Shown here: positions 2,649 to 16,346 of the stretch, piece by piece
Numbering within the stretch: the stretch's first letter is position 1
How the letters are laid out: each line of letters begins with the position of its first letter
Assembly: GCA_963662465.1 (NCBI GenBank)
Contig: OY759599.1
Location: forward strand, 5,344,001-5,408,000
Source of the DNA: Desulfatiglandales bacterium
GTDB lineage: Bacteria; Desulfobacterota; DSM-4660; Desulfatiglandales; Desulfatiglandaceae
DNA length: 64,000 bases
Reading direction: 5' to 3'
Made by a program: the position numbers and the translations under genes
Notes under the pieces: generated by a model
What the model saw: the letters and a program-made list of their open reading frames with translations, nothing else
What the model was told of the DNA's origin: nothing
Databases searched by the model: none

Positions 2649-3738
2649 ATGCAACTGGCTGAAAATGTTAAGAATGGCGATTTGACGCCGGTATTTGAAG
2701 ACGGGACCAAGCTAACTGCCGAGGGAAAGTTTGAATTATGGCGCCAAATCTATTTATACCCCAACGCACCGAGTCGGCAAATCTTGGAGGAAGCCAGCCA
2801 ACTCAATATCACCATCCGGCATTTGAATCGCCTCAGGAACTCATGGGGTATCAGCCGGACAAAGGGCCGTCCCAAGAAACCCATGGCAGAGCAGTCGTCA
2901 TCAGATGTGCCGGTTTCTATCAAACTCAATGCCAACTTATCGTTTATCGGGGTACACATTTTTGCCTGTTGGGTCGAGATGCAGGGTCTTTTCCCAACGG
3001 TCCTGGAACTTCTTAAGGAAGCCATCTCATTGCATATGGGAAACTACCCACAAGATTCTTTCCCTTTATTGAGCCACCAAGATGAAACTTTGTTGGCCCG
3101 TTTCAAGGCGCTTTTCTTTGCTCCGCTGTTCGGTGTCCAAAAATTGATCGAGTATGATGTCCGAGAACATGCTCTCGAAACCGTTATCGGCAGAAGCTAT
3201 CAAAGTTCCACCTTGAACCGGTTTTTGGGCCAATTGGAACGTATCGACGCCGCACCGGTACCCAAGAATGCTCTGATATCAGCAGATGAGAACGCTGGCA
3301 ACATCTGTTTCATCGATGGTCACATGATTCCTTTTTGGAGTCGGCTTTCGATGCACAAGGGCAAAATCACCATGCTGGGAAGAATTATGACCGGATCTCA
3401 GGCGATCGGGCCCATATTGAAACGGGTCATGGCTATTTACTTCGACTACCAACCACCTGACACGCGTCTTCCCAAGATGATTATCGAGTTTTGCGCTCAA
3501 ATCGTCACTTTGACGGGAATCGAAATTTTCGTCATCGATCGGGAGGTCAATTCGGAAGCCATTGCGCAAGAATTTGCCGAGAACGGATGGGGTCTTTTGT
3601 GCATGCTGGATAAAAGCGAATATAAAGACCTTTCCGATTGGGAGAGCGAGTATATTGGCGAGCTCACTGACGTAGCCGAAGTATATCAAGGCCACTGGAA
3701 ACCGGAAAAGAAGAAGAACGACGACACGAGGCATTTTG
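2649..3738 (+). pseudogene. Putative DDE transposase, C-terminally truncated by the IS21-type element
   Basis: N-terminal HTH-like ...KGRPKK, FIDGH and VIDREVNS acidic motifs; after ...DDTRHF the frame runs into the IS21 left inverted repeat (ORF track extends it to 3827). Confidence 0.55.
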
Positions 3739-3988
3739 CTTCAACGCTAATCAAAACTGAACCAAGTTTGCTAATGGAAATTGAACCATTGGCTGTCACC
3801 GCCGGTGAGTACGGCCCTCAGGTATAGCGGACGATGAGGGATCCATAAGTGGCGGCAAAGGAGTCGTTGATGTAGATTTACTTTTCAATAAATTTTTATA
3901 AAATCTATTTTCTTTGGATTTGGTTTTCTTCTTCCAAGACAGAGGCTTGGTTAAGTGGAAATGCGATTTACTTTGTAGAATGGATGGT

Positions 3989-4024
3989 GAAGGCCCGAAG
4001 TAGCCGCTTCGGGCCTTCTTTTTT
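3989..4024 (+). terminator. Intrinsic terminator-like hairpin inside the IS21 left end
   Basis: GAAGGCCCGAAG-tagccg-CTTCGGGCCTTC followed by a T tract. Confidence 0.7.
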
Positions 4025-4073
4025 GACCACCGGATAGAGCCGGAAGCCACACACACGCCAATTTTATATAAGT

Positions 4074-4517
4074 GTGTTTCCGGCCAATTGCAAGGCCGGA
4101 ATGATGGGAGATGTCCTTTTAAGAGTGGTTCAATGCCGATGTTGTGGTTGCTTTTTTCACGTCTGTCGGTCGTGTTGGCGTGGCCAGGCCTATTGTGGGG
4201 AACGATGTCGCAGGATACGCCAAAGACAGCTGCACCGGAAAGCTCAGGGGAAATACCGCAATTCGAAAAAAGGGAAAGAGCGCCGTCGTTTGTACGAAAA
4301 AACAAAAAAATCCAAAAAAAATGGACTGAACCCTGGTGATGATAGTTCAACACCTCAAAAAGACTGTGATATTGAACCCAAAAAGCGGTCGGGGAACCGA
4401 CCCAGCTGTCTTTTTTGCGGGTCGATCGGGGTTGTTGTGGACCATTTTCCTCGCCGTGCTTATGCAGGGAGGGTTTTTTCAGATGTAACAGGCTTTGAGA
4501 AAACCCCATATCCATGA
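4074..4517 (+). CDS. Cys-rich (Zn-finger-like) basic hypothetical protein, IS21 passenger; start may be ATG ~4101
   Basis: CRCCGCFFHVCRSCWRGQAYCGERC and CLFCG motifs, R/K-rich helix. Confidence 0.65.
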   Translation: MFPANCKAGMMGDVLLRVVQCRCCGCFFHVCRSCWRGQAYCGERCRRIRQRQLHRKAQGKYRNSKKGKERRRLYEKTKKSKKNGLNPGDDSSTPQKDCDIEPKKRSGNRPSCLFCGSIGVVVDHFPRRAYAGRVFSDVTGFEKTPYP

Positions 4518-4529
4518 CAGGAGAAAAAA

Positions 4530-4949
4530 ATGATCAAAAAAAGAGTCCTTTTTCCCGAAAGAGTGCGTGTCATCAATGGAAGCTTCGGCTTTCTGGAGCA
4601 TCGTTTTTTGAGAAACGGCTTTTGGGAGAGCCTGAATCATCATGAGCTGCTGCTCTACATTTTTCTGGTGTTGGTATCTGACAAAAACGGGCTCTCTTAT
4701 TATGGTTACGACAGAATCTGCCGGATTTTAAAGGTGCATTTGGATCAATATATCGATGCCCGCGATGGCTTGTTGGACAAGGATCTGATTGGGTTTGATG
4801 GCCGTCTGTTTCAGGTTCTTTCGCTTCCCAGACGTCCTGTGATTGTGAAACAGGTAAAGGAGATCCGGCAAGGAAATTGGGTCAGTCTTGGAGAAACCAT
4901 AGAGGAAATCTTTCGGGAGACTGGGTATGGAATCCATCCGAACCGTTGA
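4530..4949 (+). CDS. Winged-helix/HTH-like hypothetical protein, IS21 passenger
   Basis: AGGAG RBS; ELLLYIFLVLVSDKNGLSYYGYDRICRIL...ARDGLLDKDLI resembles HTH_36-like replication-protein wHTH. Confidence 0.7.
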   Translation: MIKKRVLFPERVRVINGSFGFLEHRFLRNGFWESLNHHELLLYIFLVLVSDKNGLSYYGYDRICRILKVHLDQYIDARDGLLDKDLIGFDGRLFQVLSLPRRPVIVKQVKEIRQGNWVSLGETIEEIFRETGYGIHPNR

Positions 4950-5811
4950 TATTCATTTGCTGGAGTTGCGTTACGCTCATTGCCGGATAATGAATCACCA
5001 GGCTTTAAAGCGATTGAGGGATTCCATCGAAACTTACGGGCAGATCGTTCCGGCCCTGGCTATTGAAGAAAAAGACAAACTGATTCTGATTGATGGCTAC
5101 CTGCGTGTTCGAGCGCTTTGTGCTTGTGGAAAGGACCGGATATGTGTCCAATTCTCAAAAGAAAACGAACAAAATGCCATGTTTTCGCTTTTAACCAAGG
5201 CCAATGAACGGCAATGGGAAGTCATTGAGCAGTCTGTTTTACTTCAGGAATTACATCGGCGTTTTGGGTGCAGCCTCTCCCATATTGCAACCCGAATAGG
5301 GCGCGACAAGAGTTTTGTAAAACGGCGGCTGGACCTGGTTGAAGCCCTGCCGGAAAATATTTTGAGAACCGTGATTGCAGGCTCACTTTCAACCTGGGCT
5401 GCCAGCCGTGTCATGGCGCCGTTGGCGCGCGCCAACGGTGAAGACGCACAAAAACTGTTGGCCCACCTGGAAAAAGAACCTCTATCCACAAGGGAACTGG
5501 CCCGTTTCTACGCACATTACCAGAAAAGCAACCGGTCTGTTCGAGACCACATGCTGGAAAATCCATCCCTTTTCATAAAAGTTCTCGAACAAAGAACCCA
5601 GTCTAAACAAGCCAAAGAAGTTCATGATGGACCGGAAGGCAAATGGTTCAAGGATATTGAAATGGTATATGCGGTTCTCAAACGTCTGGTGAAAACCGTT
5701 TCGCATGTCCATTACCCAAAAAGCGATCAGTTGAAGAAACAAACGCTCAAAACCTGGGTGAAAAAGATAGAAAAACAAGCACTGGAACTCAAGAAAGCGA
5801 CCCAATTATGA
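4927..5811 (+). CDS. ParB/RepB/Spo0J N-terminal domain protein with HTH, IS21 passenger
   Basis: LRDSIETYGQIVP...LIDGYLRVRA (ParB box, variant GxxR), then HTH SLSHIATRIGRDKSFVKRRL; stop overlaps istA start (ATGA). Confidence 0.85.
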   Translation: MESIRTVDIHLLELRYAHCRIMNHQALKRLRDSIETYGQIVPALAIEEKDKLILIDGYLRVRALCACGKDRICVQFSKENEQNAMFSLLTKANERQWEVIEQSVLLQELHRRFGCSLSHIATRIGRDKSFVKRRLDLVEALPENILRTVIAGSLSTWAASRVMAPLARANGEDAQKLLAHLEKEPLSTRELARFYAHYQKSNRSVRDHMLENPSLFIKVLEQRTQSKQAKEVHDGPEGKWFKDIEMVYAVLKRLVKTVSHVHYPKSDQLKKQTLKTWVKKIEKQALELKKATQL

Positions 5812-7190
5812 TCCGACAATCCAAAAAAGATGCCATTGTGGAATTGAAAAAAACCGGCATGAGTTTGCGCGACATCGCCAAAACCCTGAAGGCCGGTCGC
5901 AATACCGTCACGAAGGTTTTAGATGATCATGACGAAGAGGCGGTACCCCAAAGGAACTCCCGGTATGAAGAACATGTCCCGTTGATCCGCGAGCTTTTCA
6001 AGGAATGTAAAGGAAATGCCGTGCGAGTAGCCGAGGAACTGGAAAGCCGCCAACAGATCAAAATCCCTTATCAGAGTCTGACCTGGATTATGAGAAAGTA
6101 CGAGATCCGGGAACGTAAAAAAAGACGGGCGGGCCAATACCATTTTAAACCCGGTCAGGAGATGCAGCATGATACGTCACCCCATCTGGTTGTCATTAAT
6201 GGGAAAAAAATGTCGACCCAGTGCGCGTCCCTGACCCTGGCCTTTTGCCGAAGGATTTTTATTCAGTATTACCCCTGTTTTACCCGGTTTGAGTGCAAGG
6301 TTTTCCTAAAAAAAGCATTCGAGTTTATGGACGGGGTGTGTTCCCGGTGCATGGTTGACAACACCAATGTTATTGTGGCCGGCGGCACCGGGCCTGATGC
6401 ATTGATTGCGCCTGAAATGAAATACTTCGGCGATATGTATGGAACCCGGTTTGAGGCCCATGCTGTAGGAGACGCCAATCGAAGTGCCCGTGTGGAAAGG
6501 CCTTTTCATTTTGTGGAAAACAATTTTCTTCCCGGTAGAACATTTGTTAGCTGGCAGGATTTGAACCGGCAGGCAATCGACTGGTGCCGGAATACAAGCG
6601 ATAAAAAGTTTAAACGGGCTTTAGGGATGACGCCGGATGAGGCCTATGTCATTGAAAAGCCATATCTCATTGATTTACCGGCATACCAGCCGCCAGTCTA
6701 TGTGGCAGAACACAGGGTAGCCGATGTTCAGGGATATGTGCACTTGGACACCAACCGCTATTCAGTCCCTGAAGCGCTGATTGGGAACTCCCTGGAAGTA
6801 CAGAAACATTGGCTCAAGGTCATCGTTTACGACAAAAACACAAAAGTGGCGGAACATGACCGCATACTGGATAAACGCAACACCCGAACAACCCTGCCCG
6901 GTCACCATGTTCCCATTCGAAGAAAAAAAGATCCCCGAATCCCTTCAAAAGAAGAACAGCTGTTGACGGGAGAGGATGCCATCCTGGATGAGTATGTGGC
7001 TGAACTGAAGAAAAGAAGTCACGGTCGCGGTGTGGTCAAGTTACGTCGGTTGCTTCATCTGAAACGCACTTATCCCGGGGAACCTTTTTTGAAAGCCATA
7101 ACACAGGCGCTTAAATATGGACTTTTTGATTTGTCGCGTCTGGAAAACATTATTCTCGATTATATCGCGGGAGACTTTTTTGATCTATGA
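5808..7190 (+). CDS. istA: IS21 family transposase IstA
   Basis: N-terminal HTH, PGQEMQHD, MVDN, SARVERPFHFVENNFL (DDE), GYVHLDTNRYSVP. Confidence 0.92.
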   Translation: MIRQSKKDAIVELKKTGMSLRDIAKTLKAGRNTVTKVLDDHDEEAVPQRNSRYEEHVPLIRELFKECKGNAVRVAEELESRQQIKIPYQSLTWIMRKYEIRERKKRRAGQYHFKPGQEMQHDTSPHLVVINGKKMSTQCASLTLAFCRRIFIQYYPCFTRFECKVFLKKAFEFMDGVCSRCMVDNTNVIVAGGTGPDALIAPEMKYFGDMYGTRFEAHAVGDANRSARVERPFHFVENNFLPGRTFVSWQDLNRQAIDWCRNTSDKKFKRALGMTPDEAYVIEKPYLIDLPAYQPPVYVAEHRVADVQGYVHLDTNRYSVPEALIGNSLEVQKHWLKVIVYDKNTKVAEHDRILDKRNTRTTLPGHHVPIRRKKDPRIPSKEEQLLTGEDAILDEYVAELKKRSHGRGVVKLRRLLHLKRTYPGEPFLKAITQALKYGLFDLSRLENIILDYIAGDFFDL

Positions 7191-7906
7191 AAAAGAAAAT
7201 TGAACAGTTACTCATTGATTTGAAGTTTAAAGGCATGCTGAAGGCTCTCGAAGAACAGTTGGCTTCGGCTGAAAAGAACGGTTTTTCCATTCACGAGGTC
7301 ATCTACAATCTCCTGGCTGAGGAATTACGTTTCCGGCAGGAGCGCAGCATGATCTATCGGGTCCAGATTGCAAAGCTTCCATGGGAATGGACCCTCAACT
7401 CCTTTCCGTTTGATCTTCAGCCGGGAATACAGAAGAGCCGGATCATGACGTTGTCCGGCCTTGACTTTATCAGCCGAAGAGAAAACATCGTGTTCCATGG
7501 AAAAACCGGCGTCGGCAAAACGGGATTGGCCGTGGGGATCCTTCGTCAAGCCATTATTGCCGGGTACCGGGGGCGTTTTTATAATGTTCAGGATTTGCTG
7601 GATCAGCTCTATGCGTCTTTGGCAGATCGGTCCACCCCGAAACTCCTCAATGCCCTTTGCAGATATGACCTGCTTCTGCTCGATGAACTGGGATACCTGA
7701 CCCTCAAAAAAGAGCAGATGAACGCCTTTTTTAAACTCATGAAAGATCGCTATGAAGCCGGTCGGTCCACAATTATTACGACCAATCTTCAACCTGAACA
7801 ATGGTATTCGCTGCTTGAACCAAAGGACATGGTCGATGCCTTGCTGGATCGTCTCAACCATCGCTGCATCAACATTCATATTGATGGTCCTTCCCTCAGA
7901 AAATGA
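7187..7906 (+). CDS. istB: IS21 helper AAA+ ATPase IstB
   Basis: Walker A GKTGVGKT, Walker B LLLLDELGY, STIITTN, ALLDRLNH, IDGPSLR. Confidence 0.95.
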   Translation: MKKKIEQLLIDLKFKGMLKALEEQLASAEKNGFSIHEVIYNLLAEELRFRQERSMIYRVQIAKLPWEWTLNSFPFDLQPGIQKSRIMTLSGLDFISRRENIVFHGKTGVGKTGLAVGILRQAIIAGYRGRFYNVQDLLDQLYASLADRSTPKLLNALCRYDLLLLDELGYLTLKKEQMNAFFKLMKDRYEAGRSTIITTNLQPEQWYSLLEPKDMVDALLDRLNHRCINIHIDGPSLRK

Positions 7907-7992
7907 GATGTTCGCCAAAGGGCCGGTTTTGAGGTCTGAATATCACCGGTCTGTTTGAATCTCGTTACACGAATATCAGAAATTACCTTGTC

Positions 7993-8202
7993 TTGGAGCT
8001 TGAAATGAGAGGTGGAAAACGGGTAGGCGCCGGCCGAAGAAAGAAACCGGAACATTTGAGACGTGAACTGCTCACCATTCGTCTCCCCAAATGGATGATT
8101 CTACAGCTGAAAAAAAACGGGGAAATTGGATATTTGATTGAGGATCAATTGGCGAAGGGAGGCCTCCTGAATTTACCGGACGACTATGACATAGACAAAT
8201 AG
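7993..8202 (+). CDS. Small AT-hook/ribbon-helix-helix-like protein, IS21 passenger (likely ATG at 8005)
   Basis: MRGGKRVGAGRRKKPEHLRRELLTIRLPKW pattern seen in small DNA-binding proteins; GGAG upstream. Confidence 0.55.
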   Translation: MELEMRGGKRVGAGRRKKPEHLRRELLTIRLPKWMILQLKKNGEIGYLIEDQLAKGGLLNLPDDYDIDK

Positions 8203-8467
8203 TTCCTCAATAAGCATTGCCCTTAACCGAAAAATCTAATCCCCTCTTCTCTGCCATCACCATATTGATGGTATCCTCATCACTGATTCTTCAACCAGAA
8301 CGCTACGTGTCTCACCAGCATTTTTAAAATACCATCTGATATACTCTTTCATGCAACCTCTAACAAATTTACAAGAAAACCCTTCTAAAAGGAAAAGACC
8401 AGTGCGCAATATCTGGTTCCGTTTGGATTAGCAAAACTGGTTCCATTTTAGTTAGCGCCCAAGATAA

Positions 8468-9881
8468 GGGAATTCCCAAGAAATAACCTACGCATTATTT
8501 CAAACATAATGTTATCCTGAAAAGATAAATGCATCAGAATCTTTATTTGCATTGAAACGCAATTTAAAAAAATGAGGGGACAAAAATTGAAGGAGGTGGT
8601 ATGAGCATAATGTATGAAAGACATGAAATTCATACATTGAAAAAAGTAACGGGTAAAAAGAATGAACGGAGAAACAAAAAATCTGATAAAAGATGCATGC
8701 AGACGACTGACTGGTTACAAAAGAAGAGCATATCAGGCCGACATTACCAGGAAATATTTCAACGGGAGTGCATACAAAGCCGAACGGGAGATGGGATGGG
8801 GGAGAGAGTGTGTAACAAAAGGCCTTAAAGAAGCCGAAAGCGGGATCAGATGCATGGATAATTTTCAGGGACGGGGAAAAAAGAAAACAGAAGACACGAT
8901 TCCCGGTATTAAAGAAGACATAATATCCCTTGCAGAACCTCAAACTCAGGCGGACCCTACCATGAAAAGCTCTATCACATATACAAGAATTACAGGAAAA
9001 GCTCTCAAAAAGGCACTGATTGATGAGAAAGGATACGACGGTGAGGATCTTCCCTCGAAAAACACTCTGATCAACATGTTGAACCGCATGGGATACAACC
9101 TGAAACGAGTCCTGAAATCCAAACCTGCGAAAAAGATAAAACAGGTCGATGAAATATTTGAAAATGTATGGAAGGCAAACCGTGACTCCGATGAGAATCC
9201 CAACTCTCATCGGATTTCTATTGATGCCAAGGCAAAAGTGAATATAGGCGAGTTCTCAAGAAACGGAAAGTCACGGGATCGGGAAGCGAAGAAAGCTGAA
9301 GACCATGATATGAATCCCGAAATGAAATTGGTTCCGTACGGTATTCTTGACGTTTTGAGCGGAATGCTTTCTATTTTTTTCGGCACATCTTTTGAAACAA
9401 GTGATTTCATCGTTGACTGTTTAGAGATGTGGTGGGAAAAAAACAGAATTACCTATCTTCATATAAACGAGTTGGTTATCAATCTTGACAATGGTCCGAA
9501 TTCAGCAAGCGGTCGGACTCAATTCATTCGCAGAATGACCGAATTCAGTGACAAAACAGGTTTGCGAATCCGCCTGGTTTATTATCCTCCCTATCATAGT
9601 AAGTACAATCCGGTTGAAAGATGTTGGGGAATATTGGAGGGACATTGGAACGGAGAAATATTGGATTCAATATCAAAAGCAGTCAATTGGGCATCTACGA
9701 TGACATGGAAAGGGATAAAGCCCATTGTCACGTTGCTGGAAAAGGCATATAAGAAGGGAATCCGGCTTACAAAAAAAGAAATGAAACCTTACAAAAACAG
9801 AATTAAACGTTCCGACACACTGCCCAAATGGGATGTACTTATTGAATCTGGAGTTGGGTAGTTTATTTCTTGGGAATTCCC
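8468..9881 (+). mobile_element. ISAzo13-family IS with 3-bp TSD (TAA)
   Basis: 19-bp TIR GGGAATTCCCAAGAAATAA at 8468 and its revcomp ending 9881; TAA at 8465-8467 and 9882-9884. Confidence 0.92.
8662..9861 (+). CDS. ISAzo13 family transposase
   Basis: RISIDAKAKVNIGEFSRNGKSR, NLDNGP, LVYYPPYHSKYNPVERCWG, LPKWDVLI. Confidence 0.92.
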   Translation: MNGETKNLIKDACRRLTGYKRRAYQADITRKYFNGSAYKAEREMGWGRECVTKGLKEAESGIRCMDNFQGRGKKKTEDTIPGIKEDIISLAEPQTQADPTMKSSITYTRITGKALKKALIDEKGYDGEDLPSKNTLINMLNRMGYNLKRVLKSKPAKKIKQVDEIFENVWKANRDSDENPNSHRISIDAKAKVNIGEFSRNGKSRDREAKKAEDHDMNPEMKLVPYGILDVLSGMLSIFFGTSFETSDFIVDCLEMWWEKNRITYLHINELVINLDNGPNSASGRTQFIRRMTEFSDKTGLRIRLVYYPPYHSKYNPVERCWGILEGHWNGEILDSISKAVNWASTMTWKGIKPIVTLLEKAYKKGIRLTKKEMKPYKNRIKRSDTLPKWDVLIESGVG

Positions 9882-9884
9882 TAA

Positions 9885-10658
9885 GAAAGGATGATCGCCT
9901 CGTTTAACTCCCAGAATATAATGAAAGTTTTGCTTTTGTATTTCCTCTATATGGGGTGCATTCGAACTTAACGCGTCTTCTGTAATGATGAGAGACAGAT
10001 GCGGATGATCCCTTTTCAGCTTACTCAAGAAACGTTTCGCTGCATTACGCTCACAGTCGTTTTTGCTTTGGCCGTCCTGCTTTACTATGAATTCCGGAGC
10101 AAGCGGAATGACCTCTTTGAAATCGGGATGCACAATCGCTGCCCCCAGCATCTGCTGGTAATAGGTCTTTTCGCCGGTTTTTTTCGATACTTTTACCAAA
10201 CAATTATCAGAGTAGAGCTTTTTCGAAGAGAAAAAGCCCGTTCCATCCAAAGATAGAAGATAACATCCTTCGAAAAAAGTCATACGTTCAAGCACTTTTC
10301 CTCTTTGCAGTTCCCAGAAGATATTCCTAAACGGTTTCCGAAGTTCTTCTGCGAGTACTTCATCAAGAATAGTGCGCATCTGACTGTCGCAAGGAACTTT
10401 TCCTATATGGTATATTCCAGCCAGATTACTATCGGTTTTTCTTCTTCCATCAAAAGCAAGCAATGAGGGATCCTTGAGCGAAAACATTGAAAACCCGGAC
10501 ATCAGTGCATCCGCCATTGGGATTTCGGGATCCTCACGATAGTCAGACACCTCCGAAAAATCTTTATGCAAACGTTTGAGCATTGCGTCTGCATTTAGAT
10601 GCTTGCGAATTCCAATCTTGCCCTTTTGTTTTTTTCTTTCTTGGCGTGTGATTCCCAT
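9885..10658 (-). pseudogene. Truncated DDE transposase (IS4-like/ISNCY), C-terminal part lost
   Basis: MSGFSMFSLKDPSLLAFD, LSLDGTG, KQDGQSKNDCERNAAKR, ITEDALSSNAPHI; frame ends at GDHPFL at the ISAzo13/IS21 junction; probable outer TIR CAGCAATTCCCGCTCA ending at 10848 (minus strand). Confidence 0.8.
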
Positions 10659-12023: not shown

Positions 12024-12242
12024 TCACGCCACTTGATAGATCAATGGACGAAAATGAGGGGTTGGTATCGGTTTGCCATTGGCACGTGCTGCTTCAAGCC
12101 ATGCCTTTTTTGCCTTCAACGCTTCCCGCAATGCTTCCTCCGGCGTTTTGCCAAAGGCCGAGCAATGTTTCAAGTCAGGAATATCTGCAATGTAGCCCTC
12201 ATCCTCTTCGCTGTAAAACACATTGACATGATACTCTTTCAG
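12024..12242 (-). CDS. hicB: HicB family antitoxin (short form); start codon appears to be CTG (degenerate ATG)
   Basis: KEYHVNVFYSEEDEGYIADIPDLKHCSAFGKTPEEALRE...WLEAARANGKPIPTP. Confidence 0.85.
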   Translation of the reverse strand: MKEYHVNVFYSEEDEGYIADIPDLKHCSAFGKTPEEALREALKAKKAWLEAARANGKPIPTPHFRPLIYQVA

Positions 12243-13228: not shown

Positions 13229-13564
13229 TTATGCTCCGGCGCTATGCTGTAAACTATTGCCGGCATCTTTAATAGGGATAATTCGTCGTTTAATATCCGC
13301 CCAAATTTTATGTTTCATCATTCGCAGATCATATTCAGTTTGCAGATTTAGCCAAAACTGAGCTTCAACCCCAAAATACCGCTGTAGCCTCAAGGCTGTG
13401 TCAGCAGTAATGGACCTTTTTCCATTCACAATTTCACTTACCCTGTTGGGGGAAACTGAGAGTTCCCGAGAAAGCTGGTTAATGCTGATGTCTAATGGTT
13501 CTAGAAAATCCTCACGAAGGATTTCACCCGGTTTTATTGGGTCAAGATTTTTTTTTGCACTCAT
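13229..13564 (-). CDS. higA: HigA/VapI family antitoxin (Xre HTH)
   Basis: PIKPGEILREDFLEPL...RVSEIVNGKRSITADTALRLQRYFGVEAQFWLNLQ.EYDL. Confidence 0.93.
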   Translation of the reverse strand: MSAKKNLDPIKPGEILREDFLEPLDISINQLSRELSVSPNRVSEIVNGKRSITADTALRLQRYFGVEAQFWLNLQTEYDLRMMKHKIWADIKRRIIPIKDAGNSLQHSAGA

Positions 13565-13613: not shown

Positions 13614-16346
13614 CTTATCGTTCGCGTTTTAAAAATAAGTTCTGCAAATTTTGCCGAGGAGGCAGGCAGCACTTACTTGGCGGAACAACATCTCCACGAT
13701 AAAATACGATATCAGAGGCATTGGTAGTACATCCCCGGTAAGGATACAGGCCCATAAGGGGAACAGGAACGAGCGCCTTGATAGATTGATTCGAAATTGT
13801 CGTAATTCATAGCTATTATTATTTTTTAATGGATTCAAAAACAATACGATAACATGCTGGAATAACGATGGACATTCACAGCTGTTTGTATTATATTAGT
13901 TTCCCAACATTACAACCACTTGAAATAACAGGGGAACTATATGAACCGACATGTGACGCATGTGTTCATTTTCGCATCAGTGTGTTTTTTGGTTTGGTTT
14001 TGCAGTTTTTCAAAGGTGCAGGCATCACCTGTTTCAGCAGGTACTGGAAATAATATAAATGCCGGTGCATCATCAAATCAACAAACTGGTCAATCTGAAA
14101 ATCAACCCAGACCTTTCGGTCAGAAGAATGATCGGCAGAAAATCCCAAAGCTTGAACGAAACAGGCTGGAAGAAGGTAAAAAATCAGCACCTGTAAGGAA
14201 ACGAAAAAAAAAGAAAAAATCAAATAAAACGAAAACTGCCAAGAAAAAGCGTGAGGGAACTCTATCATCGGATGATGATGCCTCTCACATTGCAAACAAA
14301 AGGAAAAAGGTCAAAAAGATTAACGTTACAGCAGAAAGAGTTGACGATATACCCCTATTGATAAAGGCCATGGTGAAAATGGGTATACAAGAAGCTATAG
14401 ACCAACACATCCCAGTTCAAAAGAACCAAAGAGATTTGAGCTGGGGATGGACGGCTGTTATATGGTTGGCATATATGTTATCGGAGGGAGACCATCGCAA
14501 AGTAGTCGTCCGGGAATATGTATCTGGAATGCGGCATACCTTAATCGAATTAACAGGATTGATAATCTCCGAAAATGATTTCACAGACGATCGTTTAGCG
14601 AATCTTGCCAGGTATTTAAGCGATAACGATATTTGGAGCAAAGTTGAAGAGAGAATAAGTGGCAATACGATTGAAGCATATGAGTTGCCGGAAGAAACTG
14701 TCAGGGTTGATGCTACGACTGTATCCGGCTACCACAAAACAGTTGAAGGTGGGATATTCCAATTTGGTGTTAGTAAAGACGACCCCAATAGACCGCAAAT
14801 AAAAATCATGACGGGTTCGCTGGATCCTCTTGGGATGCCGTTAGCCACGGATGTTGTTCCAGGGCAAATGGCCGATGACAAATTGTATGCACCTATCATA
14901 AGTCGCATTCACTCTATGCTCCAGAAACAAGGTGTCCTTTATGTGGGCGATTGCAAACTGAGTTCTCTTGAAAATCGTTTACACATTAAGGAAAAAGCGG
15001 AAGGACATTACTTATGTCCATTGCCTAATACTGGGAAAACCCCAGAATATATGGAGAAATGGATAGATGAAGGAAATTTGAAAGACAAAAAGAACGAGTT
15101 GATAAAGTACATCGTCCAAGACGATAAAGGTCAAGAGGAACTGAAAGCAAAAGGGTATGAGATAGAGCGTAACCAATCTGGTGAAATAAATGGAAAAGTG
15201 CTGAAATGGAAGGAACGCGTATTGATTGTAAAATCACCAGCGTATGAAAAGCAAAAAGAACTGGGATTGGAACGACGGCTTAAAAGCGCCGAGGAAAAAT
15301 TATATGCTCTGACACCACCAAGAGGCCCGGGGAAAAGGCAGATCAAAGAAAGAGAAAAATTAATAGAATCAGCAAAATCGATTTTGAAAAAACATAGGGT
15401 GAAAGATTTCCTTAAATATGAATATGTGCGGGAAGTAGAAAGTAAAACGAAATATATTGGTAAAGGTAGAGGGAGTGTCAAAAGAGAAAAAGGTTGAAGA
15501 AAGAATACGTTATCAAATAACAAAAGTGACACGGATTAAGGAAGCAATAGATGCGGAGAAGAAGAAGTATGGGTGGAAGGCCTATGTTACAGATGTATCA
15601 AAGGAGCGACTTGATTTTATTGATGTAGTTAGGTCTTATCGAAAACAATACCGGGTTGAACGAATATTTAACCGACTGAAAAGTAGGCTAAACATCGCTC
15701 CATTTTACGTAAAAAGGGAAGATCAAGTTAAAGGAATAACGCATCTTCTGATGATAGGAGTCAGGGTAATTACTCTGGTTGAATTTGTTGTTCGCCGCTC
15801 ATTAGCAAGAAGCGACGAAAAGCTTGTTGGATTGCACCTGGGAAATCCCAAGAAAGCTACGAACAATCCAACGTGTGAGAAGCTATTAAATGCTTTCAGC
15901 AAAATTACATTAACGATAATTGAAACAGGAGATAGTGTGATAAGACATCTAACCCCACTTTCTCAATTGCAACGTGAAATTCTAAAACACTTTGGACTTA
16001 GCACTTCTATATACGATAATTTAGAAGTTATGCAATAGTAAAATATTATCGTCATAGTCCTTACAGGTTGTCACAATTGAAATACAGATTTTACGACAAT
16101 TTATATGATTGTTGGAGATATGGAACGATGGTGTTTTACGCACGATCCATTCCATTTTCTGCCCTATTGTGTTGTTCCAATATTCGACGTGTGTTGTTTT
16201 TCAGGCTTTACTAACCCATGGATGCATGTTGCTCAAAAAGACTCCTGGTAGGCTTTCCGGAAATAACTTTTCCCCCTGCCAAGAGAGGTACCCTCTACCA
16301 GATTTCGAAATTAATCGAAGTGCAAATTTAAAACGCGAACGATAAG
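13614..16346 (+). mobile_element. IS1634-family IS (2733 bp), 6-bp TSD TTACCG
   Basis: Perfect 20-bp TIR CTTATCGTTCGCGTTTTAAA; TTACCG at 13608-13613 and 16347-16352. Confidence 0.92.
13941..16038 (+). pseudogene. IS1634 family transposase, frameshifted near 15480-15495 (ORFs 13941-15497 and 15457-16038)
   Basis: ERVDDIPLL, VRVDATT, FGVSKDDPNRPQIK, YVGDCK, YRKQYRVERIFNRLK. Confidence 0.85.

Follow-up and report, generated by a model that had tools for sequence, protein, structure and literature searches.

ParB proteins are DNA clamps familiar from the way chromosomes and plasmids are segregated and from repression. The parS sites of Burkholderiales secondary replicons are 16-bp palindromes with a central CG, according to the excerpted text of one report (PMC5450999). 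IS21 elements have only two genes, encoding a DDE transposase (IstA) and its AAA+ helper ATPase (IstB), and two or more subrepeats in each end are a feature of the family (PMC10122671); a further account, as excerpted, reports no target selector for IS21 and leaves ParB unmentioned (PMC10293859). Here we describe an IS21-related transposon that carries a parB gene in front of istAB. It lies in a 64,000-nucleotide stretch (hereafter the window) of a Desulfatiglandales genome (GCA_963662465.1, contig OY759599.1, positions 5,344,001 to 5,408,000; Table 1). Judged from its sequence, it is an active IS21-derived transposon in which ParB and a parS-like site co-evolve.

The parS-like palindrome, GTTGGCGCGCGCCAAC, was absent from the preliminary description of the element. 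It lies inside parB, within the operon and 372 bp ahead of istA, and was found in 25 of 25 element copies of the genome; one further copy lies outside any gene. We used a codon test in which the peptide was fixed and synonymous bases were free, covering at least 120 loci (119 clear homologues; L192 was dropped). Among the matches listed, the full set of six palindromic codons was found in 25 of 36 clusters (70% identity), where 0.07 would be predicted from the codon use of each gene, and TTG encoded leucine in 36 of 37, where 6.8 would be predicted. Of 23 parB genes reached via IstA, 19 had a perfect 16-bp palindrome, one and no more in each and invariably at the homologous codons, where ∼0.3 perfect palindromes would be expected by chance over all windows; two of the remaining genes had 7/8 pairs, one had 6/8 and L325 had none. 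Seven palindrome sequences were recovered, differing by paired, symmetric changes (GTTGGCGCGCGCCAAC, TATGGCGCGCGCCATA, TATTGCGCGCGCAATA, GTTTACGCGCGTAAAC, GTTTATGCGCATAAAC, GTTTATACGTATAAAC and GTTCATACGTATGAAC), and the encoded peptide varies with the DNA (LARAN, MARAI, IARAI, FMRIN, FIRIN, FIRMN, FTRVN). On this codon evidence, the palindrome is conserved at synonymous sites and is under selection as DNA. All seven variants fit the 16-bp, central-CG pattern, the core composition stated in the excerpt of PMC5450999 not always being present. One of them, GTTTATGCGCATAAAC (L309, L314 and L319), is identical to the parS of B. cenocepacia chromosome II as given in the excerpt of PMC7022226.

A second ParB-IstA-IstB element is present in the same genome, hereafter G000 (L069 and L070, at about 6,813,500 and 8,094,500 of G000:C1). 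Its ParB is 22% identical, its ends read CTAT...ATAG, and it has a primase-type zinc-finger gene as well as a small basic gene after istB; one copy contains another IS21 element. Since its palindrome, GTTCATACGTATGAAC, is different, each of the two would be directed to a site of its own.

Association of parB with istAB proved to be the rule. From the parB side, 98 loci were examined: istA directly followed parB in 85, nine were cut by a contig edge and four had no istA (L057, L123, L137 and L150, with parB broken in three of the four), giving coupling in 85 of 89 informative loci. An IstA-first search of 209 genomes of the class examined 24 loci, five with too little DNA upstream, and found ParB upstream in all 19 others. 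The preliminary description had named a predominance of close IstA relatives without its proposed module as evidence against it, and for ParB the opposite was seen. Close IstAs in a phylum sample comprised five with ParB, two at an edge or in a fragment and two without ParB, one of which (L236) belongs to a broken element and the other is L210. The congruent trees that the preliminary description had looked to, beside conserved synteny, were also obtained. ParB and IstA trees of 56 elements agreed with a Mantel rho of 0.92 (maximum of 999 permutations, 0.23), and 21 of 26 IstA splits with support of at least 0.95 were common to the ParB tree, with no conflicts. In a quick tree, 24 ParB-bearing IstAs formed one branch (Shimodaira-Hasegawa-like approximate likelihood ratio test, 99) with L210 as sister and the ParB lineage of L325 outside. 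The ratio of non-synonymous to synonymous substitution rates (dN/dS) of parB was 0.21 versus L004, pointing to purifying selection. By these comparisons ParB belongs to the element as an integral component and is not cargo, as the preliminary description had supposed. ParB relatives numbered 984 at E≤1e-10 in a set clustered at 90%, and 145 clusters at 50% identity and E≤1e-30; in plasmids, tblastn with ParB gave no match, and viral contigs gave none with the codon-degenerate site pattern.

The AlphaFold2 model of ParB (predicted local distance difference test score, pLDDT, 96.7) resembles ParB, Noc and KorB over residues 1-202, with a Foldseek E of 1e-10 to Myxococcus xanthus ParB; the best two-domain structural match is KorB (VIA Z 12.3, 192 residues aligned, root-mean-square deviation 5.5). 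The ParB box reads D56-G57-Y58-L59-R60, DGYLR aligning with AGERR of Spo0J. The preliminary description had noted GYLR here in place of GxRR. The box is as described, and the departure is only partial, since 110 of 111 homologues retain the key Arg and GxRR itself is found in 30 of 111. Tyr occupies the E78 position in 102 of 111, and in the Spo0J alignment the ENLQR motif is absent. According to the excerpted text of PMC8494293, E78 and E111 are required for hydrolysis of cytidine triphosphate (CTP) and not for binding or closure, and PadC, without both, binds CTP and does not hydrolyse it; the losses in the element's ParB, which affect both hydrolytic glutamates, match those of PadC. ParB also lacks the N-terminal ParA-stimulating tail (a median of 8 residues precedes strand 1) and no parA was found among the element's open reading frames (ORFs). 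Ordinary partition is therefore unlikely, and with the hydrolytic glutamates also missing, ParB is probably a long-lived clamp rather than an adaptor for a partition motor.

Exact matches to the palindrome outside parB numbered 27, of which five lie at most about 270 bp from a family-type end. Three are in gene-less miniatures with the site in non-coding DNA: L260 (258-512; family-type ends, duplication matching at 7/8), L263 (1405-1679; 8-bp duplication, imperfect left end) and L290 (2855-3240; family-type ends, 5-bp duplication). In the other two, at L337 and at G000 3,732,981, the site has a lone end 230-270 bp away. The flanks of the site in miniatures and at lone ends are mostly unlike parB, and the deletion derivative L295 ends right after a 15/16 copy of the site. 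Searches made from the ends returned one element with both ends, again L290, with its site. The five associations of site and end are far beyond chance for a 16-mer and suggest, at the level of sequence, that the site is required in cis. The 22 other matches have no paired family ends and are chance-like or unexplained, and a pattern match in G099 (L294) was rejected as a chance occurrence in coding DNA. Locus L073 (G000:C1 3,732,420-3,733,254) has a lone right end and the palindrome, with no left end within 33 kb; we take the adjoining 3′ gene fragment to be comM/YifB.

We favour, tentatively, the reading that ParB acts in cis on transposition through the parS-like site in its own gene. A ParB dimer would bind the 16-bp site through its helix-turn-helix (HTH) domain, load there as a CTP-type clamp and close on the DNA, marking the donor copy, in cis, for transposition. 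In the least certain step, clamps would spread outwards, over 1.7 and 3.0 kb, as far as the ends and, like an internal enhancer, assist IstA in pairing or licensing these. Binding, closure and spreading are predicted from ParB biology. A fuller and more doubtful version would have a widespread transposon lineage turn a ParB-parS module into a required cis enhancer, a CTP-loaded, hydrolysis-poor clamp licensing end pairing, with protein and site co-evolving in the same 16 bases.

Several observations weigh against such a role. L325, a third and deeper ParB-IstA lineage, has no palindrome at the homologous position or in 3.5 kb. The sister IstA of L210 is without ParB, its N-terminal half resembling an ordinary IS21 protein, and ParB was found within 1.5 kb in 0 of 23 distant IS21 loci; IstA-type enzymes therefore do not generally need ParB. 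IstA and IstB of IS5376 alone integrate pre-cleaved ends in vitro, as the excerpt of PMC10122671 states. The invariant D56 and conserved Q39 of ParB could allow hydrolysis by another route, and because D56 could substitute, slow hydrolysis is only a prediction. The miniatures are a biased sample, having been found by palindrome search, and one of 255 bp leaves little room for clamp spreading. End-first searches also returned ends with no site nearby, in L328 (2.5 kb), L354 (350 bp; end in common with L337) and L361 (1.5 kb).

ParB bound within its own gene might instead block or silence the operon in the manner of KorB, fixing copy number and the levels of IstA and IstB, with the Cys-rich or the small basic protein a possible co-repressor. 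The position of the site inside the operon and the structural match to KorB fit this autorepression, and the excerpt of PMC7022226 describes ParB-mediated silencing near parS. Retention of the site in gene-less miniatures would be unexplained, unless these are decoys; moreover, the Cys, winged-HTH (wHTH) and small genes vary independently of ParB, and the 25 near-identical copies suggest a recent burst. We consider autorepression, the chief rival, unlikely. A site in cis, as the miniatures suggest, would equally be needed if the clamp handled an excised intermediate, keeping a transposon circle tethered, at the nucleoid or at structural maintenance of chromosomes (SMC) complexes, or protecting it until insertion. 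Copy-out/paste-in has been proposed for IS21 (PMC11208146, as excerpted), and hydrolysis-dead ParB still recruits SMC (PMC8494293, as excerpted). The missing ParA gene and ParB tail speak against handling of this kind, and no direct sign of circles was seen: end-to-end junctions were not found in contigs of four public runs, data that cannot exclude circles. Such handling is improbable in our view.

The preliminary description had suggested target selection, and the 25 copies lend this no support, showing no bias in orientation, spacing or gene context. ParB might mark existing copies and keep IstB off them, or might steer insertion. Gaps below 40 kb numbered 3 against 2.8 expected, no sign of long-range immunity, a range under about 20 kb being beyond the reach of the test; copy and fork run in the same direction in 15 of 25 cases (p 0.42), long ORFs hold 16 of 19 against a background of 0.86 (an insensitive test), and the duplications of 19 copies have no evident consensus. 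None of the four interrupted copies is interrupted by the same element, a count without power, since copies cover ∼1.4% of the genome; an immunity of IS21 has been suggested and left unexplained (PMC11208146, as excerpted). Immunity or targeting is, to us, about equally improbable. Finally, ParB could be a passenger, a captured plasmid parB and parS with no role in transposition. Identity of one variant to a secondary-chromosome parS does make capture from a plasmid-type partition locus the probable origin, and istA is absent from 4 of 89 loci. A passenger would nevertheless hardly keep its coupling across ParBs only 22% identical, with congruent trees, a co-varying site that miniatures retain, and no parA; this explanation we hold to be very improbable.

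Table 1. Features of the transposon (positions in the window)
Feature	Position	Strand	Remarks
Element	3739-8463		4,725 bp; multi-copy, IS21-related
Left end	3739..3788	+	Opens CTT; two subrepeats, 24 bp spacing; inverted repeat I1; 26 left ends share boundary
Terminator-like hairpin	3989..4018	+	T run after; accompanies window-type Cys gene; putative function
Cys-rich basic protein	4074..4517 (GTG; ATG at 4101)	+	CxxC...CxxC...YC...C; family F7, swappable
wHTH-like protein	4530..4949	+	12-bp gap after Cys gene; PF13730 E 5.5e-5, below cut-off; optional
ParB-family protein	4927..5811	+	Nucleotide-binding fold, HTH domain, helical C-terminal domain (203-294); 23-bp overlap with wHTH ORF
parS-like palindrome GTTGGCGCGCGCCAAC	5421-5436	.	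16 bp, within parB; in this copy a perfect 20-mer (5419-5438); predicted ParB site
IstA-type DDE transposase	5808..7190	+	Triad D122, D184, E230; NF033546, PF22483
IstB AAA+ helper ATPase	7187..7906	+	NF038214, 225 bits, over cut-off 200; PF01695
Small basic protein	7993..8202	+	69 aa; optional, in 5/98 loci
Right end	8414..8463	+	Closes AAG; two subrepeats, 24 bp spacing

The order and spacing of the ORFs and the ATGA overlaps joining parB to istA and istA to istB were borne out as described (Table 1). Grouping of the three genes ahead of istA into one module was not. The slot before parB holds Cys family F2 in 56 of 98 loci and F7, a family built from 13 loci, in 12-13 of 98; the two alternate and are distant (hhalign probability 77.5%). 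The wHTH gene, with 412 homologues, occurs in 6 of 98 loci. Its product gave a single-sequence model of pLDDT 42, and its Atlas clusters are unnamed, with PF13730 on 20-29% of members. Cys and wHTH genes also stand ahead of istA in eight ParB-less loci. The 69-aa ORF after istB is present as described, its AT-hook/ribbon-helix-helix label resting on sequence appearance: the protein had no Pfam, NCBIfam or PHROG match. Close relatives of it were detected by tblastn in other insertion elements of this genome. The dN/dS values were 0.32 (Cys) and 0.30 (wHTH) versus L004, and 0.06-0.28 for the small basic gene. Genes of the Cys-rich, wHTH and AT-hook kinds can be exchanged and occur also in ParB-less IS21 and recombinase-trio elements, and so do not form one module with ParB; their products are likely interchangeable regulators and not clamp subunits. 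In the same genome, the wHTH gene also stands first in two three-recombinase elements (L071, 300-5274; L072, 3874-7977), close to a different Cys-rich gene; the recombinases, from their appearance, are presumably of the tyrosine type.

The boundaries are exact, being shared by 26 left and 26 right ends genome-wide, all CTT...AAG; relatives' ends likewise read CT...AG. The 25 copies are ∼99.5-100% identical, 21 uninterrupted and four with insertions. Target duplications of 5-8 bp flank 19 of 25 copies (nine of 7 bp, eight of 8 bp, one each of 6 and 5 bp) and are absent from the window copy, where an ISAzo13 element starts 3 bp past the right end. All six ORFs have dN/dS below 1 where measurable (istA 0.15 and istB 0.06 versus L004). 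The best NCBIfam match of IstA, NF033546 (E 1.9e-37, 129 bits), is under the cut-off of 160, and the triad of IstA is conserved (D in 55/56 with one gap, D in 56/56, E in 56/56).

The hairpin of the left leader may also be a protein-binding site. Distant relatives (L109, L295, L077 and L136) keep its stem sequence, as does a patch without genes at G000 3,458,644. An A/T-rich tract of the same leader (3895-3940) recurs in the phage-borne miniature L290 (about 3105-3150) and in isolated patches at G000 1,868,084 and 3,458,518. An Rfam search gave no match beyond chance. The transposon is one of a cluster of insertion elements, with a transposase-like ORF (2649-3827) cut by its left end, the ISAzo13 copy (8467-9882), a truncated minus-strand transposase (9789-10658) and another transposase-like ORF (13941-15497). 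Other neighbours we take to be genes for formate-tetrahydrofolate ligase (393-2156), a HicB-like antitoxin (12024-12221) and a HigA-like antitoxin (13229-13564).

A transposon with a clamp of its own would put CTP switches to a new use and add a new layer of control over IstA and IstB, of whose donor licensing and immunity little is understood. Seven ParB/site pairs occurring in nature form a series for the study of DNA-binding specificity under a double constraint, since protein coding and the site fall on the same bases. Miniatures of 255-386 bp are direct test objects for the cis requirement, and L238 (3589-5208), a chimeric-looking IstA without ParB, is, like L325 (2755-3492), a natural control. 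A role for a transposon-borne ParB with IS21-type istAB was not found in the literature searched, which did not extend to subscription journals, ISfinder or TnPedia; catalogues of insertion sequences may list such elements.

Compared with known systems, the element shares with IS21 an operon encoding a DDE transposase together with its AAA+ helper, IstB directly downstream of IstA, two subrepeats per end, 5-8-bp duplications and the absence of strong target specificity. The terminal repeats, called IS21-type in the preliminary description, hold as to boundary and subrepeats and differ at the tip: IS5376 ends in CA-3′ (PMC10122671, as excerpted), and none of the 52 ends here does. Because it lacks the terminal CA-3′ and the two-gene plan, having six ORFs, we class the element as IS21-derived, not canonical. 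It differs from IS21 and IS5376 also in its separate IstA clade with a sub-cut-off IstA, its integral parB with internal palindrome and its extra swappable genes. It resembles ParABS in its ParB fold with HTH domain and, by sequence criteria, in its 16-bp palindromic site, and differs in having no cognate parA, N-terminal tail, E78 or ENLQR. The Burkholderiales secondary-replicon (Bsr) parS is the likeness for the palindrome, down to one identical variant; here, in contrast, a single site lies inside the coding sequence of a transposon's parB. KorB of plasmid RK2, a ParB used as a repressor, is the nearest two-domain structure, a likeness known here from structure alone, and PadC of M. xanthus shares the loss of hydrolytic motifs. 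Neither is part of a transposon, and a KorA-like partner is not shown for the element. The element recalls the internal enhancer of phage Mu and the accessory subunits of Tn7 in that a DDE transposase and an AAA+ ATPase are joined by further subunits or by a cis site within the element; it differs from Tn7 in having no TniQ/TnsD homologue and, over 25 dispersed copies, no preferred target or orientation bias.

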